A DNA stretch of 64,000 bases from an uncultured Chloroflexia bacterium (GTDB lineage: Bacteria; Chloroflexota; Anaerolineae; JAAEKA01): NCBI GenBank assembly GCA_963707275.1, contig CAVPPH010000010.1:44764-108763 (forward strand). Reading direction: 5' to 3'. The notes beneath the pieces are model-generated. The model saw only the letters and a list, made by a program, of their open reading frames with translations. It ran no database searches and was not told the DNA's origin. Positions 1 to 21,031 of this stretch are shown here, one piece after another. A program made the position numbers and the translations under genes. Position 1 is the stretch's first letter. Each line of letters starts with the position of its first letter.

Positions 1-60
1 CCGCACTGCCCATACAGTCCGTCCCGTCCGTGGCGCTCTGACTCGGCCCATTTTACCACA

Positions 61-125
61 ATTATATCGGTTTTGTATCGGTAAAACGCTTGCTTTGCGG
101 CAAATTTGGTTGTTTACTTAAGGAA
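61..125. promoter_or_regulatory. Conserved upstream block A with direct repeat TATATCGGTTTTGTATCGGTAAAAC; ~80% identical to block at 9448-9515
   Basis: Direct sequence comparison within window; shares core TATCGGTTTTG(G)TATCG with sites at 8703, 9448, 18996. Confidence 0.5.
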
Positions 126-198
126 CTTCGGCAACAAGGCATGATTGTTGTCGTAAATACCCATCTTCAGCCGCAAGGCATCTGCAAAGGAGTATCCC

Positions 199-603
199 AT
201 GACCCGCTCGAAATCACGCAGTCTCGTCACGTTGCTCGTTCTGATCATCGCGCTGGTAGCGCTGCCAGCCGCTGCGTCAGCCGCGCCGCCGCAGCCAACC
301 CTGGGTGTGTACATCACGCCTGTCGGCAGTCCTACCTGGAGGCCGGTCGACTTCCACCTGTTCTCGGCGCCGCTCGGCACGGCAAAAAGCGGTTACGTCG
401 AGTTCGGTGAGACGACAGAGGCTCTCTTGCCGCCGCCGAACCATCGTGCCGCACCAGGATCTGGGTATCGGACCGGGCGCGCCGCACACTGGTTACGACA
501 CAGAGATGGCAGCCGGCGTGGCAGCGAATGGCTATCGCGAAACGGTGCGGTTTCGTCCGTCGGAGTTCTCGCAATGGGATGGGCATATGGACGGCGTGGA
601 TGA
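199..603 (+). CDS. Secreted hypothetical protein (signal peptide then AAPPQP motif; N-terminus resembles 19132-19521 protein); downstream frames to ~950 suggest frameshifted longer gene
   Basis: ORF with N-terminal hydrophobic signal LVTLLVLIIALVALPAAASAAPPQP; similar signal+AAPPEP start in ORF 19132-19521; overlapping ORFs in 3 frames to 952. Confidence 0.35.
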   Translation: MTRSKSRSLVTLLVLIIALVALPAAASAAPPQPTLGVYITPVGSPTWRPVDFHLFSAPLGTAKSGYVEFGETTEALLPPPNHRAAPGSGYRTGRAAHWLRHRDGSRRGSEWLSRNGAVSSVGVLAMGWAYGRRG

Positions 604-996
604 ACGTGCCAGATCCGGGAACGACCGGCTCCTCGCCGGACTTCACGTCAGGACCGATCATTCCCAACAGCCTCTTCCCAATCCACGTCACGGCTGTTTC
701 CACCCGCAACGGTGCGCCGTATTCAACGTGTTCGAGGGTGACGTGCCCGCGCTTGATAGCGATCTCGACCCACCTTTCGACGTGGATGGCCACAGCCACT
801 TCCCGTTCTTTCTGGCCGACAACTCCGACTTCGGTCCTCCTCATACGCAGGTGAATGGCAGCTATCGGTGGGACGTTACGATGCGGGACAGTGGTGGCAA
901 CGGCTGGGATATCGAGGTCGATTTCCTTATCGGGGGATGGGGCAACCAATAGGATTCACATGGTCGCTGTCAGTTGACAGCATTTTGTGAAGGCCG

Positions 997-1096
997 AGCC
1001 CCTTCGGGTTTCCGTGTGTTCACCGCGACTCGCGACCCACAACGTCGCATCCATCGCAGGCGAGTCGTGGTGAACCACGAGAAACCCGAAGGGGCT
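997..1096. repeat. Long imperfect inverted repeat (~37-nt arms) forming a stem-loop between secreted-protein ORF and SBP gene
   Basis: AGCCCCTTCGGGTTTCCGTGTGTTCACCGCGACTCGC ... GCGAGTCGTGGTGAACCACGAGAAACCCGAAGGGGCT read directly. Confidence 0.6.
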
Positions 1097-1280
1097 GGCG
1101 GATCAGGTTTTCGCAAGCAGGACTGATCGATGTCCCTCGGTGGACTGACAGTCCTGCTCTATCGTACAAGTTTCCCAACGCGTGTGCAAGTGGCTGTACA
1201 GCCAGACCGGGACTGTCAGTCCTGCCCGAAGGAGGATTGATCCGTGACATTCATTCACTCATTGATCGGAGGAGAAGGTT

Positions 1281-3183
1281 ATGTTTCACAGGAAGTGGGC
1301 CGCACTCTTTGTGGTCGTGATCCTAGCAAGCCTGGCGCTGTCTGCCTGCCAGGCGCCGGCGCCGCCGGCTCAACCGGTGGTTCAGACCGTCGTCGTCCAG
1401 CAGACGGTGGTGCAGACCGTCGTCCAGACAGTCGAGTCGACCGTAGAGACGGTCAAGGAAGTAGTGGTCACCGCGACGCCTGAGGCCGGCGAGAAGGTGA
1501 CGCTCAACATCAATCTCGGCGAGGAGCCGGCGACGCTCGATCCCTCGCTGGTCGCTGACGTCACCTCGGCCGAAGTCGTCGACAACCTGTTCCTGGGCTT
1601 GACCAACATCGGCGCCGATGGCAGCGTCGAGCCGGAGTTGGCCACCGACTGGAGCGTGTCCGACGACCGGCTGACCTACACGTTCAACATGCGCGACGAC
1701 GCGACCTGGGTGACGCTACACACCGTCGGGCGGCATGCAGGAGTTGGGACCGGTCACCGCCTATGACGTGGTCTACGGCGTGCGCCGCACCTGCGACCCG
1801 CGCACGGGATCGACCTACGCCTACATCGACTACATCATCGCCGGCTGCCAGGAGTTGAACACCACCGACCTGAACGGGATGAGTGAGGACGAAATCCAGG
1901 CGCTGGTGGACAGCGTCGGCGTCAGCGCACCCGACAGCTACACCGTCCAGTTCACCGTGGACACGCCGGCTGCCTACTTCCCCGGCATCGCCGGCATGTG
2001 GGGCAACCGGCCGCAGTACCGCGCCGCCATCGAGGCGCACGGCGAGCGCTGGACCGAGCCGGGCTTCATGGTCAGCAACGGCCCCTACACGCTGGTGAGC
2101 TGGTTCCACGGCGACAACATGGCGCTGGAGAAGAACCCCTTCTGGTACGGCTGGGACGAGGCGACCGGCAACATCGAGCGCATCGAGGTGGCCATGGTGC
2201 CGGAAGAGACGACTTCCATTCGCGCTGTACGAGACAGGTGAACTGGACACGGAGTTCGTGCCCGTCGCCGATCGGGAACGTGTCAAGAACGATCCGGTGC
2301 TGAGCCAGGAGTACAGCCGCTGCGCCGCGCGCCTGTACCACCTACGTCGGCTTCACCAACTCCAAGCCGCCCATGGACAACGTACTGGTGCGGCGGGCGC
2401 TGTCGGCCGCCATCGACCGCCAGAGCCTGATCGACAACGTCACTCAAGGACAACCGCATCCCGGCCAACGCCTTTGCGCCGGCTATGATCTTCGGCAACG
2501 CGGCCGGCGACACGGAGATCGCGCCCTGGACGTTGCCTGAAAGCATGGGCGGCTGGGGCTACGAGAAGGCGCTGGCGCAGGCCAAGGAGTGGCTGGCCGA
2601 AGCGGGCTACCCGGACGGGCAGGGCTTCCCGACGATCACCTACATGCACATCAAGAGCGAGAGCGCCAGCCAGATTGCCCAGGCCATCCAGTCGATGTGG
2701 AAGGAGGGACTCGGCATTGATATGCAGATCGAGACGCAGGAGGGCAATGTCGTGCTGAACACGCTCCAACCGACCACGCCTCTGGCAGGAGCGACCGCAC
2801 GCCTGGTTACATGGGCTGGTGCGCCGACTACGCCGACGAGAACAACTGGGTGCACGAGGTGTTCAACAGCGATGAAGGCGCCGAACTGGTTGAGCTGGGA
2901 CGAAAGCGCCAATGCGCCGCTGGGGCCCGGATGGCAAGAGCTTCAACCAGTTGACCAAGGAAGCGCAGTTGACCGAAGATCCGGCCGAACGCCAGGCGCT
3001 ATACCGCGCCGCCGAGAAGATCCTGGTCGACGACGCCGCAGGCTTTGCACCGCTCTACTACCGTCGTGAGCAACGTGAGTAACCAAGCCCTACCTACAGC
3101 GCACCTATCCCAGCATCGGCGGCAACGAGTGGTACAACTGGGTGCTGGATTGGGACGCCAAGCAGAAAGCACTTGGCAACTAG
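1281..3183 (+). pseudogene. ABC transporter substrate-binding protein, family 5 (oligopeptide/dipeptide SBP), lipoprotein signal; broken into >=4 frames
   Basis: ORFs 1281-1766, 1735-2241, 2258-2488, 2485-3069 in different frames align collinearly with intact paralog 9668-11570; TVVQ repeats, LSAC lipobox. Confidence 0.75.
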
Positions 3184-3189
3184 TGCAAG

Positions 3190-5826
3190 TCATGGGGAAG
3201 TCTCTCGATCCTGGACGGCCAGCACTCCTTCCAGGATCGAGACCGGCTTCTGTAATTACTTGGCCGAATGGCTGTCGCTGACCTCGTGTCCACGCAGCAC
3301 CGAAACTTTCCGTGTCAAGATGGGCTTGTGCTGCCTCGATCAGCCGATCGCAGTCGGCTCGGTAGATTGGCCACATGCGATAGTTCTCGTTGTCGGCGGC
3401 ATCAGCCGCGCCAAGCAGGGCAACAGCCAACTCGTACTTGCCCAAGCTCCAGAGCCAGGCTGGCCGGGCCAATGCACCAGAGACTCCATTCATCTCTGTT
3501 GACCGATATTCCTGGCAGACTGGCGCGGTACCAGGGAATTGCGCCTGCGTAATCGCCTTCGTCCTGGACTAACCTCGCTAGGCTAAGGTAGGAGCCACAA
3601 AGATTGGGGTCCTGCTCGTTCCCAAGTTTCTTGAAACGCCGTAGCATCTGGTCTAGAAACGCGTGGGCTGCAACAAAATCCTTCTGTCGAATTGTCGTGA
3701 GAAGTCAGACCAGTAAGTGTTTCCACACTAATGTAGCTTTCCCCGCTTTGCCGCTCGATTGTCATACTTTGTTCGAAGAGCGATCTTGCACGACCGAGAT
3801 CGCCATTTGCATAGGCAACTTCACCCAGCCGGTTCAGTGGCCATGTAAACCCCAGACCTTCCCGTTGCGCAATGGCAAGGTTTTCCTCGCCTAACTCCTG
3901 TGCTCGAACAAAATCACCTCTCACTAAGGCTACTTTTGTGAGGAAAAAGAGAGCCCACGAGACGCCGGAAGGCGATTTAAGTTCTCTGTAACACGCGAGA
4001 GCATTTTCAAGGTACCGATTGGCAGCGGTTGAGTCTTGCAACCACCACAACGCCATTCGTCCCAGAAGCGTCAAGGCATCAGCTTTTCCCTGGTCATATC
4101 CAAAATATGTGCTGATGGCCAGGCATTCTTCAAACATGGTTCGCGCCTGGGCAACCTCTCCCTTGTATAACATGATGATGCCTGCTTCATACAGCACCCT
4201 TGCTCGTGCAATGGTTGGATCTGAGGCACCGGGAAGCGCAAGTATCTTGTCAATCAAATGGATTGCCTCTGCGTAGGGACCTCGCTGACGATACCAACTT
4301 GCAAGATACGCGGTAATGAGCAAGGACGCTTGTCGTTCGTGTTGGATAGCCGAAGCATGGGCTGCACGCATGTTGTGGATTTCGTCATCGATCAGGCGGT
4401 TCGTGCAGTAGGCGTCTAGGATTGGGATCCATTCGATCGGCGTTCTCAACGAGTTGTAAGAAACTGCTGGCATGGCGGGCCCGCAGAGCGTCTTCCTCCC
4501 CGCTGGCAGCCAGCCTCTCCAGGCCGAACTCGCGCACCGTTTCCAGCATTGCATACCGTGTTTCACCGTACAGTCCGATCTCACGCTGCACCAAGTTTCT
4601 TTCTAGAAGCAGGGCGATGCCGCCCAGGACGGTTGCCTCCTGGTTTTCCTGGTCGTTCTTCTCCCCACACACCATCTCGGCGGCCTCCAGCGTGAAGCCG
4701 CCGGCGAAGACCGACAGACGCCGGAACAGCGTCTGCTCGGCCGGCGAGAGCAGGTCGTAGCTCCAGCCGATGGCGCCGCGCAGGGTCTTCTGGCGGGCGG
4801 AGACGTCGCGCAGGCCGTCGGTCGAGAGCAGCCACGGGCCGTGCAGGCGCTGCCAGCAGCTCCTTCGGCGGCAGCAGCTTGACCCGCGCCGCGACCAGCT
4901 CGATGGCCAGCGGCAGGCCGTCCAGCCGGCGGCACAGCTCGGCCACCGCGGCGGCGTTGCCGTCGTCGACGGCGAAGTCGGGCAGCACCGCCTCGGCGCG
5001 GTCGGCGAAGAGTGCTACCGACGGGTAGCGCAGCATGTCGCTGGCCGTGACCACGCTCGCGCCGGCCATCTCGGCCGGCAGCGCCAGCGGCAGGACGTGG
5101 ATCTGCCGTTCGCCGCGCACTCGCAGCGGCTGGCGGCTGGTGACCAGCACGTGCAGCCACGGACAGCGTCGCAGCAGGTCGTCCACCAGCGGCGCGGCGG
5201 CCACGATCTGCTCGAAGTTGTCCAGCACCAGGAGCAGGTGCTTCTCCTCCAGATAGGCGCGCAGTTGCAGTTCCGGCGGGTTGGGACCGCTCATCTGCAA
5301 GCCCAGCGCCTGCGCGATCGCCGCGGCCACCTGGTCGGGGTCGGTGACCGGCGCCAGGCGCACGAAGAAGACGCCGTCGTCGAACTGCTCCAGCACATCC
5401 TCGGCCACGGCCAGGGAGAGCCGCGTCTTGCCGACGCCGGGCGGACCGACGAGGGTGACCAGCCGCGCGCCGTCGCTCAACAGCCGCCGTCGTACCACGG
5501 TGATGTCGTGGGCGCGGCCGATGAGCGGCGTGAGCTGGGCGGGGAGGTTGTTGGGGCGCTGTGGACGCAGCAGGCGCGCGGTGGTCGGTGAAGTCCTCGA
5601 CCGTGCCGCGCGCCAGGGCGATCAGGTCGGGCAGGTCGGCGTCGTCTGCGCCGAGCGCCTGCGCCAGGGACGTGACCAGCGGCGCGGACGGTTGCAGGTC
5701 GCCGCTTTCGATTTTGCGCAGCGTGACCTCGGCGCAGCCCGCCTGCTGCGCCAGCGCTTTCTGTGTCAGCCCCAGCGCCTTGCGCCGTTGTTTGAGCCAG
5801 TGGCCGAAGGTTGTTGTCTTAAGCAT
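3190..5826 (-). pseudogene. STAND-type regulator copy 1: HTH_XRE + NB-ARC (P-loop GPPGVGKT) + TPR; multiple frameshifts
   Basis: ORFs 4603-5826, 4581-5498, 4385-4675, 3583-4584, 3402-3647 (minus) are collinear with intact paralog 16180-18789. Confidence 0.75.
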
Positions 5827-5834
5827 GCCGTGCC

Positions 5835-8504
5835 TCAGGTGCTGCTTGTTCCTCGACGCGCAGCACTTCCTCCAGGATCGAGACCGCCTCCTCTGATCAC
5901 CTGTTCGAATGCGAAGTTCGCGCCCTTCCGTCCACGCAGCATCAAAGCGCTCGACACCCAGGTGGGTGCGGGCGACTGTCGACGAGGCGATTGTAGTCGT
6001 TTCGCTGGAAGGGCATCAGAGCGATAATCTGGCATGTCCGCAGCCTCGATCATGCCTAACAGCTTGGCGGCCAACTCGTGTCGCTCCAAGGCTTCGGCCA
6101 GAGCAGCCAGACCAAGGCCCCAGTCACACCAATCTGTTCTGTCATACCTCACTCCAGGCAGGCCTACTCGTACAACCGACTGCGCCAGCGTAGTCACCTT
6201 CTGACCTGCGCCAGTATCCCCAGAAGCAGGTAGCAATCACAGAGTTGGCGTATTGCCAATAGTAGTTGTTTCCCTTGAGCATGCTATGACCTCATCCAGA
6301 AAGGCATGGGCAGCCGGGAAGTCCCCTGGCGCGTCGCAATCTCTGCCAAATCAACAAGGGTGCTCATGTCAGTGCCTCATCCTTCCGTGTTGCCGCTCAA
6401 TCGACAATGCCTGCTCGTAATAGCGATCGTGCCTCATCAAGGTCACCTTCAGCGTACGCGATGGCCCCCAGATCTTGTAGCGGCCATGGAAACCTGAAGC
6501 CTGCCTGCTGTGCGATGGTGAGCGCTTTCCTCGCTCAGCGCTCGTGCCGCGCGAAAGGCTTCCCGTATGACATGCGATTTCGGCCAGGAATGCACAGAGA
6601 GATAAGGAAATACCGTCGGGGTCGTCCAGCTTTCTGATAGATTGAGAGCGAGCTTGTTCAAGATATTGGACAGCTATACTCTGATCATATCGGCCGTACC
6701 AAGTGAATTTGTCCCAGGCCATAGCAGGGCATCAGCCTCCCCCTTTTCGTATTCCAGTTCCTGGCTGAGAACAAGGCTCTCTTCAGCATAGGCCTGAGCT
6801 TATCGCATTCATTGCTACACGAGCATGAGGATTGCCTGCCTCACGCAGAGCCTTCGCTCGGGGAATCGTATGGGCTGAGGCGTCAGGCAAGGCGAGAACT
6901 TCTTCTATCAAACGCATGCCTTCCGCATATGGACCTCGTTGGCCAAACCAGCGCAAGATAGGGCTGCGGTCAGCAACAACGCGGCCTGAACGTCAGTTCC
7001 ATCGCCCAGGCCAGTGCAGCGCGCACGTTGTGGATTTCGTCGTCGACGAAGTGGCGTACCTGCCAGAAGCCGGAGTCTAGGTCCAGAATGTTCGGCTTTC
7101 TCGACAAGTCGGAGAAGCAACTTACATGCCGTGCGCGTAACACCTCTTCTTGGCTGGCTCGAATTCATCCGTTCCAACCCGTACTCGCGCACCGTCTCGA
7201 GCATGACGTAGCGCGGATCACCGTACATGCCAGTTTCACGGTGCAACAGGCTCTTGTCCAGCAACGAACCGATGCCGTCGAGCACCTGGGCGGCGAGAGG
7301 GGGAGCGGGAGCGGGGAGAGAGGGTTTCTCCGCACAGCAGTTCGGCCGCTTCCAGCGTGAAGCCGCCGACAAAGACGGACAGGTACGTGAACAGCGCCTG
7401 CTCGACCGGCGAGAGCAGGTCATAGCTCCAGCCGATGGCGCCGCGCAGGGTCTTCTGGCGGGCGGAGACGTCGCGCAGGCCGTCGGTCGAGAGCAGCCAC
7501 GGGCCGTGCAGGCGCGCCAGCAACTCGTTCGGCGGCAGCAGCTTGACCCGCGCCGCGACCAGCTCGATGGCCAGCGGCAGGCCGTCCAGCCGGCGGCACA
7601 GCTCGGCCACGGCGGCGGCGTTGCCGTCGTCGACGGCGAAGTCGGGCAGCACCGCCTCGGCGCGGTCGGCGAAGAGGGCCACCGACGGGTAGCGCAGCAT
7701 GTCCTGGGCGGTCACCGCGCTCGGCGGCCGACGCAGCCAGCCGGCAGCGCCAGCGGCTGGACGTGGATCTGCCGTTCGCCGCGCACCCGCAGCGGCTGGC
7801 GGCTGGTCACCAGCACGTGCAGCCACGGACAGCGGCGCAGCAGGTCGTCCACCAGCGGCGCGGCGGCCACGATCTGCTCGAAGTTGTCCAGCACCAGGAG
7901 CAGGTGCTTCTCCTCCAGCCAGGCGCGGCAGTTGCAGCTCCGGCGGGTTGGGGCCGCCCATCTGCAAGCCCAGCGTCTGCGCGATGGCCGCTGCCACTTG
8001 GGCGGGGTCGCTGACCGGCGCCAGGCGCACGAAGAAGACGCCGTCGTCGAACTGTTCCAGCACGTCCTCGGCCACGGCCAGGGAAAGCCGCGTCTTGCCG
8101 ACGCCGGGCGGGCCGAGGAGGGTGACCAGCCGCGCGCCGTCGCTCAACAGCCGCCGTCGCACCACGGTGATGTCGTGGGCGCGGCCGATGAGCGGCGTGA
8201 GTTGGGCGGGCAGGTTGTTGGGGCGCTGTGGACGGAGGAGGCGCGCGGTGGTGGTGAAGTCCTCGACCGTGCCGCGCGCCAGGGCGATCAGGTCGGGTAG
8301 GTCGGCGTCGTCTGCGCCGAGCGCCTGCGCCAGGGACGTGACCAGCGGCGCGGAGGGCTGCAGGTCGCCGCTTTCGATCTTGCGCAGCGTGACCTCGGCG
8401 CAGCCTGCCTGCTGCGCCAGCGCTTTCTGTGTCAGCCCCAGCGCCTTGCGCCGCTGTTTGAGCCAATGACCGAAGTCGCCTGTCCTGGCAACCCTGTCTG
8501 CCAT
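5835..8504 (-). pseudogene. STAND-type regulator copy 2 (tandem to copy 1): HTH_XRE + NB-ARC + degraded TPR; many frameshifts/stops
   Basis: ORFs 7236-8504, 7712-7894, 6908-7423, 6369-6722, 5835-6236 (minus) match successive segments of 16180-18789 protein. Confidence 0.7.
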
Positions 8505-8694
8505 TGTTTCCTCTTTGTCGCCATCAAATCCAAAAGTGTGACCGAATTCACCGTTTTTGTGTGACCCGCTTCATAGCGGGATTTGCAAACATGCGCGATG
8601 ATGTCCTCAACCAACTGGTTCGATCCATTTGGGGCCTACATCTCAATCCCTGTGCTCACATCGTATCTATGTGTCGCCCGGACGGTCGCGGTAT

Positions 8695-8760
8695 TGTATC
8701 ACATTGTTATCGGTATTGGTATCGCAAATCGATTCCAAGAAGGGCACAAATCCGCTTCAA
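8695..8760. promoter_or_regulatory. Conserved divergent-promoter block C (ATTGTATCACATTGTTATCGGTATTGGTATCGCAAAT...GCACAAATCC...TTCAATAATGACAGG)
   Basis: ~85% identical to block 18985-19080; both lie ~200 bp upstream (divergent) of an HTH-NB-ARC-TPR regulator start. Confidence 0.55.
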
Positions 8761-8766
8761 TAATGA

Positions 8767-9008
8767 CAGGTGGCGACAGGGCCGATATTGTCGACGACGC
8801 GGTCCTCCGGGTCTACCCTGACTGGTCCCAGGTCAGGGTAGACGATCTGGAATACCTGGTGACCGATGGGACATACGTTGTCAGCGACGGCTCTGCCCTG
8901 CGCCGGGCGCACTTGTCCGTGATGTATTGGCCGGTCATGCAGCCCCGGCGGGCGGTCTGGCTGGAGGCTCGTCCCCGCAGGACGGTCGATCGCATCAGGT
9001 TGCGATGA
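8767..9008 (+). pseudogene. 5'-truncated remnant of cadherin-like small secreted protein (C-terminal half only)
   Basis: DDAVLRVYPDWSQV...YLVTDGTYVVSDGSA...SVMYWPV aligns with C-terminal halves of paralogs 9023-9415, 20157-20534; no signal peptide, no stop at paralog position. Confidence 0.4.
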
Positions 9009-9022
9009 AAGGAGAATGTGTG

Positions 9023-9415
9023 ATGAACATCCTGTTGATAGTTGTGATCCTGGTTGTCAGCCTGATCCCGCTGCCGGCCAGAGAACGGTATCATGTCCCG
9101 GTTGCCCGGGCCGATGATCGGACGCTGGTGTATCAAATGCCATACGTTGACATTGACGTCGTCAACAACGACTTCGGCCCGGGCCGGAACAGTTTGCACG
9201 TGGTCGCGGTCACGGTCGCTCAAGGCCAGGGGGTGGAGATCATTGACGGGTCAACGGTGCGGGTGTACGTCGATTGGGCCAGCTATTTGGCCGACGCCAC
9301 TGCCAACGATGCTGTGGCGGGCAGAGTAGCCCACGGAACCTACATCGTCAGCAACGGCTACGCCCAGTCGCGGGCGCAGTGGGCGGTGTGGTACGTGCCG
9401 GATATGAAGGTCTGA
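9023..9415 (+). CDS. Small secreted/membrane-anchored single cadherin-like (VCBS/Cadherin_5-like) domain protein, paralog P1
   Basis: N-terminal TM/signal, then VDIDVVNNDFGPG..VVAVTV...YVDW...GTYIVSNG...WAVWYVP; RBS AAAGGAGA 7 nt upstream of ATG 9023. Confidence 0.7.
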   Translation: MNILLIVVILVVSLIPLPARERYHVPVARADDRTLVYQMPYVDIDVVNNDFGPGRNSLHVVAVTVAQGQGVEIIDGSTVRVYVDWASYLADATANDAVAGRVAHGTYIVSNGYAQSRAQWAVWYVPDMKV

Positions 9416-9447
9416 ACCAATCGATACAGCGCGGTTCTCTTGCCACA

Positions 9448-9515
9448 TTTATATCGCTTTTGTATCGGTCAAACCCTTGCGGCGCGGCTGCTTGCGTTGT
9501 TTACTGGAGGAACAG
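9448..9515. promoter_or_regulatory. Conserved upstream block B (TTATATCGCTTTTGTATCGGTCAAAC...TTGTTTACTGGAGGAAC) upstream of SBP2
   Basis: ~80% identity to 61-125. Confidence 0.5.
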
Positions 9516-12944: not shown

Positions 12945-15266
12945 ATGAAGCGTTCAGCAGTGTTGGTATTGTTCGCCCTCGTCATCGTGGGGAGTATCGG
13001 ACTGTGGAACGGTCATCCGGTCAGCGCCGATGGCCACACGCAGGGTCTCTGGATCTTCTCCGACGAGATCAGTTCATTGTCGGCGCGTGATACGTTGGTC
13101 CAGCGCAGCGCGGCCAGCGGCGTGACCGACCTCTACCTCAGCGTCTATCATTCTCCCGCCAACAGCGACGGACGCCTGATGTACGAAGATGGTGACCTTG
13201 CCGATCTGATCGACAAGGCACATCTCAGCGGCCTGGCTGCGTGGGCGGCGTACGGCGACACCGTTTGGCCGGCCCTCGGATGTGATCCGGGCGCGTGGCC
13301 CTTGCAGCGCATGGCCGAGGTCGTCGCCTACAACACCGCCAATCCCGCTGCGCCTTTCGACGGCGTCATCCTCGATGTGGAGCCGCCGGAGCCGCAAAGT
13401 GCGGCTGATTTCCAAAACCTGCTGGCGCTCTACCAATGCACCCGCGACTTTCTGCCCGGCAACTTGAAGCTGGCGGTTGCGATCCGATTCTACTGGGATA
13501 CACCCGTGGCATATCCGGCCGGCGGACCGGTCAAGCCGGTCCACCAGCACATCGTCGATCTCGATCTCGACCAGATCGTGGTGATGGGCTACCGCGACTT
13601 CGCCGGCACGGCTAACTGCAACGATGGCGACGGTCTGATCTGCCTCGACCAGGACGAGATCGCCTATGCAGACGCGGCCCTCAAGCCTGACCTGATACTG
13701 GTTGGTCTTGAGACATCGAACTGCTCGCCCGGCTGCGGCCCTGAGAAGGTAACCTTCTTCGAGGAAGGGCAGGCGGTGCTAAGCAGCGAGGCGCAGGCTG
13801 TCGCGGACCACTTTGCCGCGGCCCCCAGCTTCGGCGGCTTCGCCATCCACCGCTACAACGCCTCCTATCTGTCTGGTCAGCCCGATTGGCCGGCCGAGAA
13901 CCCCCCGCCGCCACAGGGCGTGGTGGTCAGGCTGCTGGACAGCCAGGGCAACGGTCTGGCCGGCGGCACGGTGCAATACTACGCCGGCGGGTGGCAGGCC
14001 ATTCCGGGCACCACCGACGCCAGCGGGACCCTGGTTACCGATATTCCCGTGTCCAGCGGCAACCTGAGCTTCCGCATGACCTACGCCAACGCGTCGCAGC
14101 AACTGTCTCAGAACGTGACCGGCAACCCCACTGTCACGTTCCAGACGACCCACGTCACTGTCGAACTGCGAGACAGCTTCGGCAACCTGATCCCGGACGA
14201 GGCGGGAACCGGCACGGTGCAGTACTACGCGGGCGGCTGGCGTGACTTCGGTGTGACCGTGGGTGGGCAGACCAGCAAGGAGTTGCTGCCGCTGAGCTAC
14301 AGCTTCAGCATGAGCTACGCCTTTGGCCGCCAGCAACTGAACGGTCAGAATGTCGCTGCCAACCCGACCGTCACGTTCCAGACGACCCACGTCACCGTGG
14401 AACTGCGCGACAGCAGCGGCAATCTGATCCCCGACGGTGCGGGAACCGGCGCCGTGCAATACTACGCGGGCGGCTGGCGTGACTTCGGTGTGACCGCCGG
14501 TGGGCAGGCCAGCAGGGAACTGCTGCCGCTGACCTACAGTTTCGCCATGACCTACGCCTTCGGCCGCCAGCAGTTGAACGGCCAAGACGTCGGTGCTAAT
14601 CCCACCGTCACGTTCCAGACGAAACAGGTCACCGTGGAACTGCGCGACAGCGGCGGCAACCTGATCCCCGACGCGGCTGGAACCGGGACCGTGCAGTACT
14701 ACGCGGGCGGCTGGCGCGACTTCGGTGTGACGACCGGAGGGCAGGCCAGCAGGGAACTGCTGCCGCTGACCTACAGTTTCGCCATGACCTACGCCTTCGG
14801 CCGCCAGCAGTTGAACGGCCAGGATGTCGCCGCCAACCCGACCGTCACCTTCCAGACGACCCGCGTCACCGTGGAACTGCGCGACAGCAGCGGCAACCCG
14901 ATCTCCAACGAGGCAGGAACCGGGATGGTGCAGTACTACGCCGGCGGCTGGCGTGACTTTGGCGTAACCGCCGGTGGACAGGCAAGCAGGGAACTGCTGC
15001 CGCTGACCTACAGTTTCGCCATGACCTACGCCTTCGGCCGCCAGCAGCTGAACGGCCAGGACGTCAACGCGAACCCGACCGTCACGTTCCAGACTGGCCA
15101 CGTTCACTCAGACAGCGGGACAGCAGTCCAGTACTACGCCGGTGGCTGGCGCAGCTTCGTGCAGGACATGCAGCTTCTGCCCGCTTCGTACACGTTTCAC
15201 TTCAACGACGGGAGCCCGAACCAGGCATATCCAGTCGTGGGCGGCATGATGAACGCGATCCATTGA
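12945..15266 (+). CDS. Secreted 773-aa protein: signal peptide, putative TIM-barrel glycoside-hydrolase-like N-domain (FDGVILDVE motif), then ~5 tandem 79-aa repeats
   Basis: Signal MKRSAVLVLFALVIVGS; repeats NPTVTFQTTHVTVELRDSSGNLIPD..GTG.VQYYAGGWRDFGVTAGGQASRELLPLTYSFAMTYAFGRQQLNGQDV. Confidence 0.65.
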   Translation: MKRSAVLVLFALVIVGSIGLWNGHPVSADGHTQGLWIFSDEISSLSARDTLVQRSAASGVTDLYLSVYHSPANSDGRLMYEDGDLADLIDKAHLSGLAAWAAYGDTVWPALGCDPGAWPLQRMAEVVAYNTANPAAPFDGVILDVEPPEPQSAADFQNLLALYQCTRDFLPGNLKLAVAIRFYWDTPVAYPAGGPVKPVHQHIVDLDLDQIVVMGYRDFAGTANCNDGDGLICLDQDEIAYADAALKPDLILVGLETSNCSPGCGPEKVTFFEEGQAVLSSEAQAVADHFAAAPSFGGFAIHRYNASYLSGQPDWPAENPPPPQGVVVRLLDSQGNGLAGGTVQYYAGGWQAIPGTTDASGTLVTDIPVSSGNLSFRMTYANASQQLSQNVTGNPTVTFQTTHVTVELRDSFGNLIPDEAGTGTVQYYAGGWRDFGVTVGGQTSKELLPLSYSFSMSYAFGRQQLNGQNVAANPTVTFQTTHVTVELRDSSGNLIPDGAGTGAVQYYAGGWRDFGVTAGGQASRELLPLTYSFAMTYAFGRQQLNGQDVGANPTVTFQTKQVTVELRDSGGNLIPDAAGTGTVQYYAGGWRDFGVTTGGQASRELLPLTYSFAMTYAFGRQQLNGQDVAANPTVTFQTTRVTVELRDSSGNPISNEAGTGMVQYYAGGWRDFGVTAGGQASRELLPLTYSFAMTYAFGRQQLNGQDVNANPTVTFQTGHVHSDSGTAVQYYAGGWRSFVQDMQLLPASYTFHFNDGSPNQAYPVVGGMMNAIH
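14113..15110 (+). repeat. Near-identical 237-bp tandem DNA repeats (x ~4.3) inside CDS 12945-15266
   Basis: Period 237 bp at 14113/14359/14596/14833/15070; copies 2-4 differ by only a few nt. Confidence 0.85.
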
Positions 15267-15380: not shown

Positions 15381-16169
15381 ATGCCCGACTTTCGACATTG
15401 GCTACTGACCGCAGATTTGCACGTTGCAACGCTAACACTAAATCGGCCCGAGTCGAAGAACAGCCTGACGCCTGAGGTTTTGAGCGAGTTGCGCGCGATC
15501 ACAGCCGAGCTGGGCGCCAATGTCGAGGTCTGGGCTGTCGTCCTGCAAGGGAACGGAGACCACTTCTCAGTGGGCGTGGATACCGATCTCATTCGCAGCA
15601 TGCTCGATCAGCCGGCCCAGATCGTGCGCGAACAGCTTCGGGAGATGCAAGTAGCGCTGGATGAATTCGAAGCCATCCCCAAGCCCGTACTCGCCAGGCT
15701 GCATGGGTTTTGTATCGGCGGCGGTCTCCTGCTGGCATTGTGTTGCGATTTTCGCATCGCCAGCCAGCGTACCATCTTCGCCCTGCCCGAGGTCAAGCTG
15801 GGCATCCCAATTCTGATGGGCACGCACCGCATCACGCGGGTCACAGGAATTGCTACAGCAAAGGAACTGGTTTTGTTCGGCGAGCGTTTCAACGCCGCAA
15901 CGGCGCATAGATTGGGGCTGTTGCATCGCGTCGTGGCGCCCGATCAACTTGATTCCACCGTGATGACGCTGGCGGACCGCTTTCGCAGACTGCCACCGCG
16001 GACAATCAGTGTCACGAAACGCATCTTCACCGAAGGCTACGGCCTACCTCTGCGCGATAGTCAGGATCTGGAGCTTGAGGCGCTGGCGGAACTGCTTGAC
16101 AGCCACGATCCGCGCGAGGCAATCGAGAGCTTCTTGGTTGGACGTGACCCACATTACACGGGGACATAG
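15381..16169 (+). CDS. Enoyl-CoA hydratase/isomerase (crotonase) family protein
   Basis: LNRPESKNSL...FCIGGGLLLALCCDFRIA...ALPEVKLGI crotonase-fold motifs. Confidence 0.8.
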   Translation: MPDFRHWLLTADLHVATLTLNRPESKNSLTPEVLSELRAITAELGANVEVWAVVLQGNGDHFSVGVDTDLIRSMLDQPAQIVREQLREMQVALDEFEAIPKPVLARLHGFCIGGGLLLALCCDFRIASQRTIFALPEVKLGIPILMGTHRITRVTGIATAKELVLFGERFNAATAHRLGLLHRVVAPDQLDSTVMTLADRFRRLPPRTISVTKRIFTEGYGLPLRDSQDLELEALAELLDSHDPREAIESFLVGRDPHYTGT

Positions 16170-16179
16170 TCTGCAAGAA

Positions 16180-18789
16180 CTAACCAAGTTGCAACGCCTG
16201 CAGGATCGAGACTGCCTCCTCAACCACCTGCTCGAATGGGTGTCGCTGACCTTGCGCCCACGCAGCGTCGAAACTCGCTGTGTTGAGGTGAACTCTTGCA
16301 GTCTCGAAGAGTCGATTGAAGTCGGTACGATAGATCGGCCACATGCGATAGTTCTCGTTGTCTGCGGCATCGGTTGCGCCAAGTAGCACGACAGCCAACT
16401 CGTGCTGGCCAAACGCCAGCGCCAGACCGGCCAGGCCAAGGCTCCAGGAACTCCATTCATCTCGGTCGACTGGGATTCCTGGCAGACTGGCGCGGTACCA
16501 GTGGATGGCGCTAGCGTAGTCGCCTTCTTCCTGGACCAACGTTGCCAGGTACAGGTAACAGCCGCACAGGTTGGGATCCTGGTCGTTGTCGTATCTCTTT
16601 ACGAGTTGTAGCCACTGGTTCATGAATATGTGGGCAGTATCGAAATCCTTCTGACGAATCGCCGTGAGAGAAAGGCCGATAAGGGTTTCCTGGCTAATGT
16701 CGTTTTTCCCGGTTTGACGCTCTACTTTCATACTTTGCTCAAAGCGCGATCTCGCAAGTGCCAAATCGCCATTCGCGTAAGCTATCTCGCCCAGCCTGTT
16801 CAAAGGTAACGAAAACCCCAGACCTTCCCGTTGAGAGATGGCAAGGCTTTCCTCGCCTAACTCTTGAGCTCGAAGGAAGTCACCTCTCAACAGAGAGACT
16901 TTTGTGAGATACATGAGGGCCATTGACATGCCCCCAGGGGAGCGAAGTTCTGTGTAACAGTCGAGCGCCTTTTCCAGGTACTGGATGGCAGCGGCCGAGT
17001 CTTGCAACCACCACAATGACATTCGTCCCAGGAGGATCAATGCGTCGGCTTCCCCTTTGAGATAACCCAGCTTCGTGCTGATGGTCAGGCTCTCCTCGAC
17101 CATTGTCTTTGCACGAGTGGTCTCTCCGCTGTACAACAGAACAATGCCAGCTTCATACAGGACCCTTGCTCGCGGAATGGTTGGATTTGAGGCCCCGGGA
17201 AGTGCAAGTACCTCGTCGATCAAACGGATTGCTTCCACGTAGGGACCTCTCTGATAAAACCAGAACGCCAGATACGCAGTCAACAGTAAGGATATCTGTT
17301 CGTCGTGCTGCACGGACCAGGCAAGAGCAGAGCGCAAATTGTAGAGTTCATCATCGATCAAACGGTTTTGTAGCGTTCGTCTGGGGTTGCCATCCGCTGC
17401 ATTGCCATTCTCCATGATCGTCAGGAAGCAGCCAGCATGCCGCGCCCGCATGATCTCCATTTCGCCGCTGGCAGCTAATCTGTCGAGGCCGAACTCGCGC
17501 ACCGTCTCAAGCATGGCGTAGCGCGTTTCACCGTATAGCCCGGTCTCACGCTGCACGAGGTTCCTTTCCAGAAGCACTGCGACGCCGTCCAGGACGGCTG
17601 CCGCCTGCTCTTCAGCGTTGCCATCTTCCCAGCACACCATCTCAGCCGCCTGCAGTGTGAAGCCGCCTGCGAATACCGACAGACGCCGGAACAGCGTCTG
17701 CTCGGCTGGCGGGAGCAGGTCGTAGCTCCAGCCGATGGCGCCGCGCAGGGTCTTCTGGCGGGCGGACACATCGCGCAGGCCGTCGGTGGAGAGCAGCCAC
17801 GGGCCGTGCAGGCGTGCCAACAATTCGTTGGGTGGAAGGACCTTGACCCGCGCCGCGACCAGTTCGATGGCCAGCGGCAGGCCGTCCAGCCGGCGGCACA
17901 GTTCGGCCACAGCGGCAGCGTTGCCGTCGTCGACAGCGAAGTCGGGCAGCACCGCTTCGGCGCGTTCGGCAAAGAGTTCTACCGACGGATAGCGCAGCAT
18001 GTCGGCGGCTTTGACCGCGCTCGCTCCGGTCATCTCGGCCGGCAACGCTAACGGCAGCACGTGGATCTGGCGCTCGCCGCGCACCCGCAGCGGCTGGCGG
18101 CTGGTGACCAGGACGTGCAGCCATGGACAGCGGCGCAGCAAGTCGTCCACCAGCGGCGCGGCGGCCACGATCTGCTCGAAGTTATCCAGCACCAGGAGCA
18201 GGTGTTTCTCCTCAAGATACGCGCGCAGTTGTAGCTCCGGTGGGTTGGGACCGCTCATTTGCAAGCCCAGCGCCTGGGCGATGGCCGCCGCCACCTGATG
18301 GGGGTCGATGACCGGCGCCAGGCGGACGAAGAAGGCGCCGTCGTCGAACTGTTCCAGCACGTCCTCGGCCACGGCCAGGGAGAGCCGCGTCTTGCCGACG
18401 CCGGGCGGACCAACCAGCGTAACCAGCCGAGCGCCGTCGTCGACCAGCCGTTTACGCACAGCGGTGATGTCGCGCTCGCGGCCGATGAGTGGTGTGAGCT
18501 GGGCGGGGAGGTTGTTAGGATGCTGGGGACGCAGCAGGCGCGCCTTGACCGTGAAGTCGTCTTCGAGACCGCGCGCCAGGGAAACCAGGCCCGGCAGGTC
18601 GGCGTCGTCCACGCCGAGAGCTGTGGCAAGAGACGCAACCAGCGGCGCGGACGGCTGCAGGTTGCCGGCCTCGATCTTGCGCAGCGTCACCTCGGCGCAG
18701 CCCGCCTGCTGTGCCAACACCTTCTGTGTCAGCCCAAGCGCCTTGCGCCGTTGCTTGAGCCACTGACCGAAGTTACCTGTCTGTTGCAT
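16180..18789 (-). CDS. STAND-type regulator copy 3, intact: HTH_XRE N-domain + NB-ARC ATPase + C-terminal TPR
   Basis: 869-aa uninterrupted ORF; GHWLKQRRKALGLTQ HTH; Walker A GPPGVGKT; hhhhD Walker B LLVLDNFEQ; multiple TPR-like repeats. Confidence 0.85.
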   Translation of the reverse strand: MQQTGNFGQWLKQRRKALGLTQKVLAQQAGCAEVTLRKIEAGNLQPSAPLVASLATALGVDDADLPGLVSLARGLEDDFTVKARLLRPQHPNNLPAQLTPLIGRERDITAVRKRLVDDGARLVTLVGPPGVGKTRLSLAVAEDVLEQFDDGAFFVRLAPVIDPHQVAAAIAQALGLQMSGPNPPELQLRAYLEEKHLLLVLDNFEQIVAAAPLVDDLLRRCPWLHVLVTSRQPLRVRGERQIHVLPLALPAEMTGASAVKAADMLRYPSVELFAERAEAVLPDFAVDDGNAAAVAELCRRLDGLPLAIELVAARVKVLPPNELLARLHGPWLLSTDGLRDVSARQKTLRGAIGWSYDLLPPAEQTLFRRLSVFAGGFTLQAAEMVCWEDGNAEEQAAAVLDGVAVLLERNLVQRETGLYGETRYAMLETVREFGLDRLAASGEMEIMRARHAGCFLTIMENGNAADGNPRRTLQNRLIDDELYNLRSALAWSVQHDEQISLLLTAYLAFWFYQRGPYVEAIRLIDEVLALPGASNPTIPRARVLYEAGIVLLYSGETTRAKTMVEESLTISTKLGYLKGEADALILLGRMSLWWLQDSAAAIQYLEKALDCYTELRSPGGMSMALMYLTKVSLLRGDFLRAQELGEESLAISQREGLGFSLPLNRLGEIAYANGDLALARSRFEQSMKVERQTGKNDISQETLIGLSLTAIRQKDFDTAHIFMNQWLQLVKRYDNDQDPNLCGCYLYLATLVQEEGDYASAIHWYRASLPGIPVDRDEWSSWSLGLAGLALAFGQHELAVVLLGATDAADNENYRMWPIYRTDFNRLFETARVHLNTASFDAAWAQGQRHPFEQVVEEAVSILQALQLG

Positions 18790-18984
18790 TTTCTCAAGCT
18801 ACAGCCTTCTCAGCATCAGTTTGCCAGAAAAGTGTGACGGGTTTCACACTTTTTTTGTGAACTACTTCATAGCGAGAATTGCACAATCCTGTTATGATAC
18901 AACCATATCCCAAAAGCCGCTTCAAGTTTCGGGGTTAACCCGTTATCCGCCTGGTTGAGTAGGGACTGCGAGTCGCCGCAAGGG

Positions 18985-19080
18985 TCGCGCATATTGTATC
19001 ACATTGCTATCGGTTTTGGTATCGCAATTTGGTTCTTAACTGCGCACAAATCCTGTTTAATAACAGGTGTTCGGACAAAG
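18985..19080. promoter_or_regulatory. Conserved divergent-promoter block D (ATTGTATCACATTGCTATCGGTTTTGGTATCGCAATT...GCACAAATCC...TTTAATAACAGG)
   Basis: Homologous to 8695-8760; sits between regulator 3 start (18789) and secreted gene 19132. Confidence 0.55.
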
Positions 19081-19131
19081 TGCTGGGGCTCCCAAAGGCC
19101 ACCCATTTGTGATCATTTTGAGGAGGATACC

Positions 19132-19521
19132 ATGAACAAGTTTCTGTCGGTCGTGTTGGCTGCCATGTTGTTGGCCGTCGCGTTCCTGCCGGCGTCGGCC
19201 GCCCCGCCGGAGCCTGTCGATTATCGGATCACGCGAGCCGGTTCGTGTTGGCTGCCTGACGGATCAACCAGGCCGCTCTTGGTCGAGAGCGTGAAGCAGA
19301 ACTTCCACTGGGCAACGCCGATCCGGTTGGTCGCCTTTTGCGCAGGCTACGCGCCAAAAGGCGCCGAGTTGCCAAAGGAGACCTTGGTGCTAGACTACGG
19401 TTCCACCGGACGCCTGTGTAGGATCACTCTCGGTCGGGGCACTTACGTTACAGAGGACTACACTGCAACCGTCTCGCCCAACGGTAGCACCGCCATCACG
19501 TGCATAGTCGATATCGACTGA
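19132..19521 (+). CDS. Small secreted Cys-containing hypothetical protein (AAPPEP family)
   Basis: RBS GAGGAGGA; signal MNKFLSVVLAAMLLAVAFLPASAAPPEP; 4 Cys; N-terminus similar to ORF at 199. Confidence 0.6.
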   Translation: MNKFLSVVLAAMLLAVAFLPASAAPPEPVDYRITRAGSCWLPDGSTRPLLVESVKQNFHWATPIRLVAFCAGYAPKGAELPKETLVLDYGSTGRLCRITLGRGTYVTEDYTATVSPNGSTAITCIVDID

Positions 19522-19742
19522 GGAGCGTAGACGACTCTCTGCGAAAACCGGCGAGCATTCGCTACTTCTGCCGAGACGACGCGTTTCGAATCACCGCTGC
19601 TGACTTGCTGCTTCTCTCGTCCTTGCCGTTTTCCCTAGCAGGGGGCAGGGGGACCGGCGAGGCGCTGAGAGCAGGAAAAACGAGACGAGGAGCCGCCCAA
19701 AGCGGGCGGCTCCTCCCACAAACTACCTGGAGGAACCGTATC

Positions 19743-20123
19743 ATGTCTAACTTGCTTCTGATCTTGATGATGATGGTCACGCTGGTTGCACCCCTTGCCG
19801 GGCCGCGCAATCGGCCGCCGATTGCCAACGACGACATAGTCGTCCTGTTGTATCACCCTGTTCCAGTCGTCGACATTTTTGTCCTGGAAAACGATGTCGA
19901 TCCGGACATGGATCCCCTCTACGTCACAGCGCTGTCGGTCATCGACGGCGGCAAGGCCGAGATTGTCAAAGGCAAGGTCGTCCAGGTGTACATCGACTGG
20001 CCGCAAGACGGCTTTGGAGATCCGCAAGGCCTGATGGCTTACGGGTCATACATCGTCACCGACGGCGCTGCGCAAAGCAAGGCCAACTGGAGCGTCTGGT
20101 ACTGGCCGGAGATTCAGCCTTAG
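19743..20123 (+). CDS. Small secreted single cadherin-like domain protein, paralog P2
   Basis: RBS GGAGGA; signal; PPIANDD...VLENDVDPDMDPLYVTA...YIDW...YGSYIVTDGA...WSVWYWP. Confidence 0.7.
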   Translation: MSNLLLILMMMVTLVAPLAGPRNRPPIANDDIVVLLYHPVPVVDIFVLENDVDPDMDPLYVTALSVIDGGKAEIVKGKVVQVYIDWPQDGFGDPQGLMAYGSYIVTDGAAQSKANWSVWYWPEIQP

Positions 20124-20156
20124 CGGCTGAGAGTCTGGCTCACGGAGGAACGTGCG

Positions 20157-20534
20157 ATGATCACCTTTCTGCTCGCGATACCATTGGTGCTGATGTCTAT
20201 GCTGTCAAGCGGCGTGCCGCACAATCACCCACCCGTGGCGGTCGCAGACCAGTACTTCCTGCTGTTCTACCCGTTGCCGGTTGTCGACATACCGGTGCTG
20301 GAGAACGACACTGATCCCGACGGGGACGTTCTGCACGTGACTGCGTTGCTCGCGACCGAGGGCGGAACGGCCCAGATACTTGATGACGGGAGCGTGCGGG
20401 TAGTCCTTGACTGGTCTCGCGAGGTTTACGAACCGGAAGGTCTGGTTGCGTACGGCACCTACGTCGTCAGCGACGGCGCGGCAGGCAGCACGGCTGTCTG
20501 GTCGGTCTGGTATTGGCCGGTCATGCTGCCATAA
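20157..20534 (+). CDS. Small secreted single cadherin-like domain protein, paralog P3
   Basis: PPVAVADQ...VLENDTDPDGDVLHVTA...VLDW...YGTYVVSDGA...WSVWYWP. Confidence 0.7.
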   Translation: MITFLLAIPLVLMSMLSSGVPHNHPPVAVADQYFLLFYPLPVVDIPVLENDTDPDGDVLHVTALLATEGGTAQILDDGSVRVVLDWSREVYEPEGLVAYGTYVVSDGAAGSTAVWSVWYWPVMLP

Positions 20535-20566
20535 ACCATTGAAGTCGCCTGAAGGAGGAAGTAGCG

Positions 20567-20953
20567 ATGTCTACTATTCTGTCCGTACTCTTGCTGGCGT
20601 GGACCTGCATCTTGTCCGTGCCTGGGCCGCGCAACCTGCCGCCGGTGGCGGTGAACGACGAGGTCATGGTCACCGGCTACACCGACTATCTTGAGATACC
20701 GGTATTCGCCAACGACTACGACCCCGAAGGCCGGCCGATTGACGTGGTTGCCCTGGGAATGGTGGATCGCGGCAAGGCCGAGCTGTTGGAGGGCGATGCG
20801 GTCGGCGTCTACCCCGACTATCCGACGGAGGTCGACTCGACGGGATCCAAGCCAGTGCTCATCGCCCACGGCGCGTACATCATCAGCGACGGTCAACTGA
20901 CGAGCACCGGGCACTGGATCGTCTGGTATCAACCGGCATCGTCTGCTCCGTGA
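20567..20953 (+). CDS. Small secreted single cadherin-like domain protein, paralog P4
   Basis: PPVAVNDE...VFANDYDPEGRPIDVVA...YPDY...HGAYIISDGQ...WIVWYQP. Confidence 0.7.
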   Translation: MSTILSVLLLAWTCILSVPGPRNLPPVAVNDEVMVTGYTDYLEIPVFANDYDPEGRPIDVVALGMVDRGKAELLEGDAVGVYPDYPTEVDSTGSKPVLIAHGAYIISDGQLTSTGHWIVWYQPASSAP

Positions 20954-20980
20954 CCTGAAAGCACAATAACCTTCTTGACC

Positions 20981-21031
20981 GGCGCAGAGACACGAAGAGA
21001 AAGCACCTCTTTGCGTCTCTGCGCTTTTCGT
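20981..21031 (+). terminator. Intrinsic terminator-like hairpin after cadherin-like gene array
   Basis: GCGCAGAGAC-23 nt loop-GTCTCTGCGC followed by TTTTCGTT. Confidence 0.55.

Follow-up and report, generated by a model that had tools for sequence, protein, structure and literature searches.

Tandem cassettes of predicted STAND transcription factors and adjacent operons for extracellular proteins in a Chloroflexota genome

To our knowledge, very few transcription factors of the class of signal transduction ATPases that have numerous domains (STAND) have a known target or operator (MalT, GutR and AfsR), compared with thousands of annotated proteins that combine a helix-turn-helix (HTH) domain, an NB-ARC domain and tetratricopeptide repeats (TPRs). 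Three regions coding for proteins of this architecture are found in a 64-kb stretch of contig CAVPPH010000010.1 from an uncultured Chloroflexota bacterium (the window; ∼61% G+C, with proteins that match Chloroflexota best). By analogy with the MalT, GutR and AfsR systems, these regions and their neighbouring genes are proposed, at a rough probability of 0.55, to form tandemly amplified cassettes, in which a STAND transcription factor is combined with an adjacent, usually divergent, extracellular-protein operon that it most likely activates. The cassettes represent a known kind of system that is specific to one clade, the Amarolinea/Caldilineales-type Chloroflexota. The XRE-NB-ARC-TPR regulator type is already known, and the undescribed circuit suggested in an initial annotation of the window is thus a clade-specific member of the known STAND class.

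GutR, the activator of the glucitol operon in Bacillus subtilis, has the closest architecture known to us and contains an XRE-type HTH domain. The regulators in the window resemble GutR in the N-terminal HTH domain, the NB-ARC-type nucleotide-binding oligomerization domain (NOD), the C-terminal TPRs and the length of ∼830–870 residues. The likeness is one of architecture: the gene under GutR control is catabolic and the signal is a sugar alcohol, whereas the putative targets in the window are secreted β-sandwich proteins. GutR is reported to be activated by inducer plus ATP (Poon et al. 2001, as cited in PMC10936776). A second related system is MalT of Escherichia coli, a STAND switch consisting of a NOD, a winged helix/arm and a helical-repeat sensor. 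MalT multimerizes cooperatively on repeated boxes upstream of weak promoters. The intact regulator in the window matches the TPR_MalT model, and its homologues carry the HTH_77 winged helix. However, MalT binds maltotriose and has a C-terminal LuxR-type HTH domain, and both the domain order and the DNA-binding domain differ from those found here. The activation of MalT has been described previously (PMC4381067). AfsR and the other large Streptomyces antibiotic regulatory proteins (SARPs) also carry their DNA-binding domain at the N-terminus, ahead of NB-ARC and TPR domains, and the NB-ARC region of the intact regulator matches the AfsR model (4.8e-15). The regulators in the window differ from these proteins in their DNA-binding domain, which is an XRE HTH rather than a winged helix of the OmpR type with BTAD, and in their putative targets, which are not biosynthetic clusters.

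Three other groups of proteins share partial features with the locus. The RRNPP proteins (Rap, NprR, PlcR, PrgX and AimR), which are known from Firmicutes and from phages of these bacteria and respond to short peptides after maturation, likewise combine an XRE-type HTH domain and a TPR sensor with neighbouring secreted products and an Opp-type binding protein. We know of no RRNPP member that contains an NTPase domain, whereas the regulators in the window, from the phylum Chloroflexota, contain an NB-ARC domain and have folded proteins as neighbours. Orphan OppA paralogues, which are extra family-5 solute-binding proteins (SBPs) that share one Opp permease, resemble the SBP_bac_5 lipoproteins in the window in the lack of adjacent permease and ATPase genes; here, both copies are frameshifted, and the permease search covered the 64-kb window only. 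The anti-phage STAND proteins (Avs/bNACHT) differ in that the regulators in the window match no defence-system model and use an HTH domain as the effector.

The regulator reg3 (positions 16180–18789, minus strand) is an intact 869-residue protein consisting of XRE-HTH, NB-ARC, winged-helix (HTH_77) and TPR domains, and its gene is the sole open regulator frame (869 codons) among the three regions. In profile searches, the HTH domain is located at residues 7–65 (HTH_31, 1.1e-13; HTH_3, 3.3e-10), and the NTPase domain occupies residues ∼100–232 between the HTH and TPR domains (NB-ARC, 3.9e-9, plus AAA_22 and AAA_16). The C-terminal repeats match TPR_12 in five stretches (2.4e-23) and TPR_MalT at 1.1e-8, which is below Pfam's cut-off. 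The HTH_77 winged helix (PF25872) is recorded for a protein that is 100% identical to reg3 (P0001) and for reg3 homologues. The Walker A (GPPGVGKT), Walker B (LVLDNFE) and GLPLAIE motifs are invariant in an alignment of 34 homologues. The STAND assignment of reg3 is sound because it is based on both the domain profiles and these invariant motifs, and the XRE HTH, NB-ARC and TPR architecture given in the initial annotation is confirmed. With an NB-ARC NOD containing Walker A and B motifs, a winged helix following the NOD, a C-terminal repeat sensor and an HTH domain in the same polypeptide, the regulators are, as judged from sequence, clear members of the STAND transcription-factor class. NCBIfam and PADLOC assigned no family to the regulator, and a PDB sequence search returned nothing close. 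More than 8000 database proteins match reg3 with E <= 1e-10, and the HTH-NB-ARC-TPR architecture is common. The closest named relative is from Candidatus Amarolinea aalborgensis (69% identity), and closer matches are from Anaerolineae and Caldilineales metagenome-assembled genomes (MAGs).

The two other regions of regulator length, reg1 (∼3190–5826) and reg2 (5835–8504), are located on the same minus strand, and the three regions are 72–97% identical in DNA blocks of ∼190–300 nt (repeat comparison; tblastn). The three paralogous regulators of ∼870 residues initially described are therefore real as regions, but only reg3 is open; reg1 contains six +1 insertions, and reg2 contains ∼20 indels, mostly +1, that leave its Walker B region out of frame. 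The paralogues were compared with those of five related genomes, whose regulators are 51–84% identical: Ca. A. aalborgensis (L001), HK-STAS-CHLO-17 (L053), a JGI 4.5-Mb contig (L084/L085), JBAQCH01 (L086) and a Caldilineales MAG (L087). When all copies from all genomes are compared, identity is 46–90% in the HTH/NB-ARC/winged-helix half but only 13–53% in the TPR half outside three orthologue groups. In the reg1–reg2 pair, the DNA identity is 93–94% in the N-terminal halves and ∼60% in the C-terminal halves. In terms of sequence, the regulator paralogues thus appear as a conserved output module combined with diversified sensors. The reg1 region and L087 12665–15100 are orthologues with 87% DNA identity and 84% amino-acid identity in the TPR half, compared with only 71–72% protein identity for their GNAT and ECH neighbours, which hints at recent exchange or unusually strong constraint.

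The combination of a conserved switch/effector half with very divergent sensor halves, together with tandem amplification, resembles an NLR-like surveillance system, in which foreign proteins or those specific to kin would be recognized by hypervariable TPR sensors and the output would be surface-remodelling transcription rather than cell death. The TPR sensors of known Avs defence STANDs bind phage proteins (PMC13581612), and in L001 (14329–16146), two regulator copies are separated by an inserted AbiEi/AbiEii pair of the toxin-antitoxin (abortive infection) type. However, PADLOC gives only generic HTH/TPR matches for the regulator and none for the small proteins, no defence-system model is matched, the effector is an HTH domain rather than a nuclease or protease, and the genomic context consists of metabolic genes rather than a defence island. 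Synonymous sites are saturated for a test of diversifying selection. Surveillance of this kind is accordingly considered very doubtful. A related version, in which the paralogues would form an NLR-like receptor bank with a conserved HTH/NB-ARC output module and each of the rapidly diversifying TPR sensors would detect its own protein or peptide cue (kin, phage or neighbour) and switch on its own secreted Ig-like surface or matrix proteins, is given a slim chance; if true, it would provide a transcriptional, non-lethal output for bacterial STAND surveillance in filamentous Chloroflexi.

The operons proposed as targets of the STAND regulators encode mainly small secreted proteins. On the plus strand, divergent from reg3, a P129-family gene (19132–19521; signal peptide ...ASA/APP) is followed by three tandem Big_9/Cadherin_4 mini-protein genes assigned by Pfam (19743–20123, 20157–20534 and 20567–20953). 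The P129 family is tiny, and its 129-residue protein is β-rich and has four invariant cysteine residues, which are likely to form two disulfides; its AlphaFold2 (AF2) model is unreliable, with a pLDDT of 52 that is too poor for a structure search. The three mini-proteins score 30.3, 41.9 and 25.5 bits, respectively, against Big_9 (gathering cut-off, 23.6). Divergent from reg2, a 130-residue cadherin-like/Big_9-related mini-protein with an N-terminal hydrophobic anchor is encoded at 9023–9415 (plus strand) and is 63% identical to the product of L087 18351–18746. It is without a Pfam match of its own and is classified as cadherin-like by homology (phmmer/tblastn), and the cadherin-like family recognized initially is thereby retained in full. 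The cadherin-like proteins consist of a single Big_9 domain behind a hydrophobic N-terminus. A fifth cadherin-like gene is present as a remnant of the C-terminal half (8745–8945, plus strand), with 59–66% identity to residues 63–126 of the L087 and L084 proteins. The reg1 gene is arranged convergently with the SBP gene at 1281–3185 and in tandem directly behind reg2 and is thus without a divergent partner, so that the divergent pairing initially attributed to every regulator applies to reg2 and reg3 only.

Two further secreted proteins are encoded in the same part of the window. A P248-family gene (199–955, plus strand; signal peptide ...AASA/APP) contains two +1 insertions and one −1 deletion. 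The P248 family comprises 306 proteins of ∼248 residues with no Pfam domain, and the AF2 model of a homologue (P0132; pLDDT 91.6) predicts an Ig-like β-sandwich fold. The genes at 199 and 19132, initially merged into one AAPP(E/Q)P family, belong to two unrelated families (∼248 and ∼129 residues) that share only the signal peptide/cleavage region. At 12945–15266 (plus strand), a syntenic gene encodes a secreted 773-residue protein with five 79-residue Ig-like tandem repeats, which correspond to five 237-nt units of 77–87% DNA identity (repeat families D1 and D17); the gene is a possible regulon member. The P129 protein, the cadherin-like mini-proteins and the 773-residue Ig-repeat protein have the look of surface or matrix components and not of pro-peptides for signalling, and the cell-surface regulon that had been offered as a fallback interpretation fits the locus better than a peptide circuit.

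Two OppA-like family-5 solute-binding lipoproteins are encoded on the plus strand, SBP1 (1281–3185; lipobox LSAC; ten +1 insertions) and SBP2 (9668–11565; lipobox LAAC). In SBP2, the last ∼52 residues are out of frame because of a single +1 insertion near 11405; the protein matches SBP_bac_5 (PF00496; 1e-67) and the OppA model (1.3e-52), the latter match being below that model's equivalog cut-off. An SBP had been assigned to each module, and those of the reg1 and reg2 parts of the locus are indeed present, although frameshifted, but none is found in the reg3 module. As initially noted, permease and ATPase genes are absent from the vicinity of the SBP genes: no ABC permease or ATPase had a Pfam match among the open reading frames (ORFs) tested across the 64 kb, and no ABC ATPase signature was found in a real ORF. 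A third, diverged SBP_bac_5 gene (49371–52842, plus strand; ∼30–37% identical to SBP2) is located after BNR/sortilin-like repeats and is also interrupted, with ORF 50471–52051 ending inside the domain and the homology resuming in another frame to 52842.

Two cis elements are found around the regulators. Block B contains a core of three TATC(A/G) direct repeats with 11–12-bp spacing (ATTGTATCACA-N4-TATCGGT-N4-GTATCGC), followed after ∼33 bp by a conserved TA(A/C)T-type −10-like element, and the core is mostly located 97–119 bp from the start codon. The window contains Block B at 8691–8765 (plus strand; ATTGTATCACA-N4-TATCGGT-N4-GTATCGCAAATCGATTCC...GCACAAATCC..TTCAATAA) and at 18991–19065 (plus strand), ∼108 bp before the P129 start codon. 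Variants are observed at 51–120 (plus strand; TTACCACA-N4-TATCGGTTTTGTATCGG), where three TA(T/C)C repeats 11 bp apart lie ∼120 bp upstream of the P248 gene, and at 9437–9507 (plus strand), upstream of SBP2, with the core TATCGCTTTTGTATCG at 9452–9467. The former type also precedes P248-family genes in L001 and L087, a variant is present at the equivalent position upstream of the L001 SBP gene, and another precedes the L001 homologue of the Ig-repeat gene at 12945–15266. Site A consists of paired TGTGA-N6-TCACA-like sites 23 bp apart, 35–75 bp upstream of the regulator start codon. At reg3, site A (18833–18873) comprises a perfect AAAAGTGTGA-N6-TCACACTTTT palindrome and a half-matching second site 23 bp away; the TGTGA-N6-TCACA copy is located at 18833–18848, and the palindrome with its 10-nt arms spans 18829–18852. 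At reg2, site A (8537–8577) comprises two CRP-like TGTGA-N6-TCAC sites, ∼35–75 bp before the start codon, of which the copy at 8537–8552 has one mismatch to the palindrome. In the window, two motif matches are observed, compared with 0.03 and 0.00 expected by chance (site A expectation, 0), in agreement with the conserved intergenic block initially described. Scans with Rfam (gathering threshold) and for tRNAs were negative, so that the intergenic blocks hold no RNA element of a known type. The direct repeats recognized by SARPs have a spacing of 11 or 22 bp (PMC10936776), and Block B shows the same 11-bp-type direct-repeat geometry; it is likened to the SARP/AfsR and MalT operators because its one-turn direct repeats are located upstream of a weak promoter. 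No consensus sigma-70 promoter was found in 18700–19200, which fits activator dependence. In favour of a role in the cassettes, Block B is present upstream of 12 of 16 regulator copies and also immediately ahead of SBP, P248 and big-Ig genes that lie away from any regulator.

Based on these features, a mechanism is proposed for the cassettes. From the N-terminus to the C-terminus, the regulator would consist of an XRE-type HTH domain, an NB-ARC domain that acts as a nucleotide switch and is joined to a winged helix, and TPRs that serve as the sensor, and the operon under its control would encode Big_9/cadherin-like mini-proteins, the four-cysteine P129 protein, the P248 β-sandwich protein and, in some cassettes, the OppA-like lipoprotein. 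By analogy with MalT, GutR and AfsR, the TPR domain, which differs between paralogues, would capture a ligand. Ligand capture may then relieve autoinhibition and allow ADP/ATP exchange and oligomerization, and the near-identical HTH domains would be arrayed on the three TATC(A/G) repeats of Block B, one helical turn apart. The repeats, placed at approximately −45 to −75 from a weak promoter, would thereby activate the secreted-protein operon. The regulator gene itself is probably controlled by the paired TGTGA-N6-TCACA palindromes near its start, which could be bound by either the regulator or a Crp/Fnr-family protein. Site A fits the CRP-type consensus, and a candidate binder is encoded at 21567–22253 (plus strand) by a Crp/Fnr-family gene that is syntenic with the module and 77.5% identical to its L086 homologue. 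In our reading of its sequence, this protein appears to retain the Arg-Glu recognition-helix pair (YRETATQVL).

Several observations weigh against this mechanism. Site A is found at only seven of the 16 regulator copies, and Block B is missing at the tandem copies. The usual target of an XRE HTH dimer is a palindrome, and this would favour site A over the direct repeats as the operator of the regulator. Moreover, all related loci belong to one family-level clade and share the synteny of GNAT, ECH, hydantoinase, Crp and ACT genes, and the neighbourhood could therefore be inherited rather than functional. If the synteny were simply inherited, with no direct link in regulation, Block B would be the promoter or operator of a different factor, and the STAND proteins would have their targets elsewhere or regulate only themselves through the palindromic site A. 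Consistent with this possibility, Block B is also located directly upstream of SBP, P248 and big-Ig genes that have no adjoining regulator, and distant homologues, among the matches listed, lack the neighbourhood. However, several independent duplications and rearrangements, both within a genome and between genomes, have left the divergent pairing in place, and P248 genes in unrelated bacteria are again found divergent to STAND-TPR regulators, there with another DNA-binding domain. Inherited synteny as the whole explanation is thus regarded as unlikely.

The pairing was assessed in the five related genomes. The regulator copies are repeatedly divergent to a P129 or cadherin-like gene of 120–147 codons, often with several cassettes per locus, and a divergent regulator/small secreted gene pair is observed for reg2 and reg3 in the window and in L053, L084, L085, L086 and L087. 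Where an SBP gene is present (window, L001 and L087), it is the last gene of an operon that opens with small secreted genes; no SBP is found within 10 kb in L084 or in the fetched L086 locus. The arrangement thus recurs within the clade, and together with the profile support for the regulator domains, this recurrence means that the lack of a conserved neighbourhood and of domain support, which the initial annotation had named as grounds for rejection, was not encountered there. The arrangement does not extend to distant homologues. In a census of 79 distant loci among the matches listed (29–44% identity, mostly NOD-only relatives), no cadherin-like, P129 or P248 neighbour was found, and a weak SBP match was observed at two loci. 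The XRE HTH domain is kept in seven of these loci, which makes the broad census a thin sample, and the seven have no divergent small secreted genes except for one 298-residue candidate in L003. The census relied on phmmer searches of six-frame ORFs with single sequences, by which divergent SBPs could have gone unnoticed. A metagenome scan with reg3 yielded two loci only.

A reverse census from the target side covered six P248 homologues in other bacteria. Two of the six (L088 and L093) are directly divergent from STAND-TPR regulators that contain an OmpR/SARP-type Trans_reg_C domain instead of the XRE HTH domain, a further likeness to AfsR and the SARPs. Of the others, one is found 5.5 kb downstream from the gene for a BTAD-NACHT regulator, one is near TPR/cyclase gene fragments, and two have no regulator of the STAND-TPR kind nearby. 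The placement of P248 genes next to Trans_reg_C STAND-TPR regulators independently supports the view that regulators of this type are functionally connected with the P248 family at least.

The neighbourhood data also bear on the RRNPP-like quorum or peptide sensing that was initially proposed, in which the small secreted proteins would be processed to peptides, re-imported via the OppA-like SBPs and bound by the cognate TPR domain. An XRE HTH domain and TPRs are indeed combined in a single protein, signal peptides are present on the neighbouring gene products, OppA-like SBPs are encoded in the same operons as the small genes (window, L001 and L087), and the paralogues have hypervariable TPR halves, a pattern also seen in pherotype diversification. 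However, the NB-ARC NTPase between the HTH and TPR domains has no counterpart in any RRNPP member known to us. The neighbours are folded domains of 105–230 mature residues (Big_9, four-cysteine β-rich and pLDDT-91.6 β-sandwich proteins), and their precursors of 125–250 residues are not short pro-peptides. The type of partner gene, tested against the TPR orthology group, was not found to track it. Furthermore, the 64-kb search for a permease or ATPase was negative, the L084 and L086 modules are without an SBP over the ranges given above, and the secreted neighbours are absent from all 79 distant loci among the matches listed, including the seven with an XRE HTH domain. A peptide-sensing circuit is therefore no longer favoured and is judged highly improbable.

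The frameshifts in most copies, which were overlooked initially, affect the 1–11.5-kb part of the window. Compared with its orthologues, reg1 is read through three ORFs as a result of its six +1 insertions, and reg2 is divided into at least four ORFs by ∼20 indels; together with those of SBP1 (ten +1), SBP2 (one +1) and the P248 gene (two +1 and one −1), the totals are ∼36 insertions and ∼6 deletions. Most insertions are located outside homopolymer runs. After removal of the inserted bases, reg1 is open over 869 codons without stops (dN/dS 0.22–0.23), and SBP1 is open over 623 codons without stops (dN/dS 0.16 versus the L053 orthologue); the corrected values of 0.16–0.23 are in the range of intact gene pairs. 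Two unrelated single-copy genes outside the regulator cassettes are similarly split. The proB gene (28434–29679, plus strand) is divided into an AA_kinase ORF (28434–29162) and a PUA ORF (29080–29679) that overlap in different frames, and a GFO/IDH/MocA oxidoreductase gene (57735–58794, minus strand) is divided into ORFs 58054–58794 and 57735–58214, with profile positions 2–73 of the C3 domain in one ORF and 81–121 in the other. In L087, the reg1 orthologue is interrupted as well, there by deletions and at other positions, and programmed frameshifting was rejected on these grounds.

The single-base insertions are most likely consensus errors that arose from assembling a paralogue-rich stretch, as indicated by the almost insertion-only spectrum, the lack of nonsense codons and the unchanged selective constraint. 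The errors would cluster in 1–11.5 kb because paralogue-rich stretches are hard to assemble and polish, and the organism itself probably has intact versions of reg1, reg2, the two SBP genes and the P248 gene. Alternatively, the frameshifts could be real, and the left 11.5 kb would then be a paralogue cluster decaying by birth-and-death evolution, with reg3 and its operon as the sole working cassette. The frameshift density is ∼25-fold higher in 1–11.5 kb than in the rest of the window, which could also reflect such decay; in addition, the truncated cadherin-like remnant at 8745–8945 is a genuine deletion product, and fragmented copies occur in L087 and L053 as well. However, bacterial pseudogenes show a deletion bias, opposite to the ∼36:6 ratio observed here, and the corrected reg1 and SBP1 genes show neither nonsense codons nor relaxed dN/dS values. 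The splitting of the single-copy proB and oxidoreductase genes and the different error type at different positions in L087 also disagree with decay, and unpolished consensus is inferred to persist at paralogous repeats in hybrid and long-read assemblies. Real decay is hence considered improbable, and consensus error remains the preferred explanation. As a caution, paralogue-rich cassettes in this and related MAGs collect indel errors, and naive gene calls consequently report fragments or pseudogenes.

Relatives of Ca. Amarolinea are filamentous and known from activated sludge. The clade offers a repeated regulator/operator/target arrangement, with a three-fold direct repeat as the candidate operator and paralogues that differ mainly in the sensor, and questions of regulator target and sensor specificity become testable in these relatives.

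Three additional features are observed elsewhere in the window. Two tandem 4Fe-4S ferredoxin genes (22492–23253, plus strand; 78% DNA identity; repeat family D13) share synteny with the Crp and ACT genes in L086. At 54748–55047 (plus strand), a stand-alone XRE-type HTH protein of small size (∼100 residues; HTH_3, 5.3e-10) is encoded. A heliorhodopsin ORF of 360 codons (29710–30792, minus strand) is located between proB and proA-like genes and matches PF18761 over its full length (2.7e-100).

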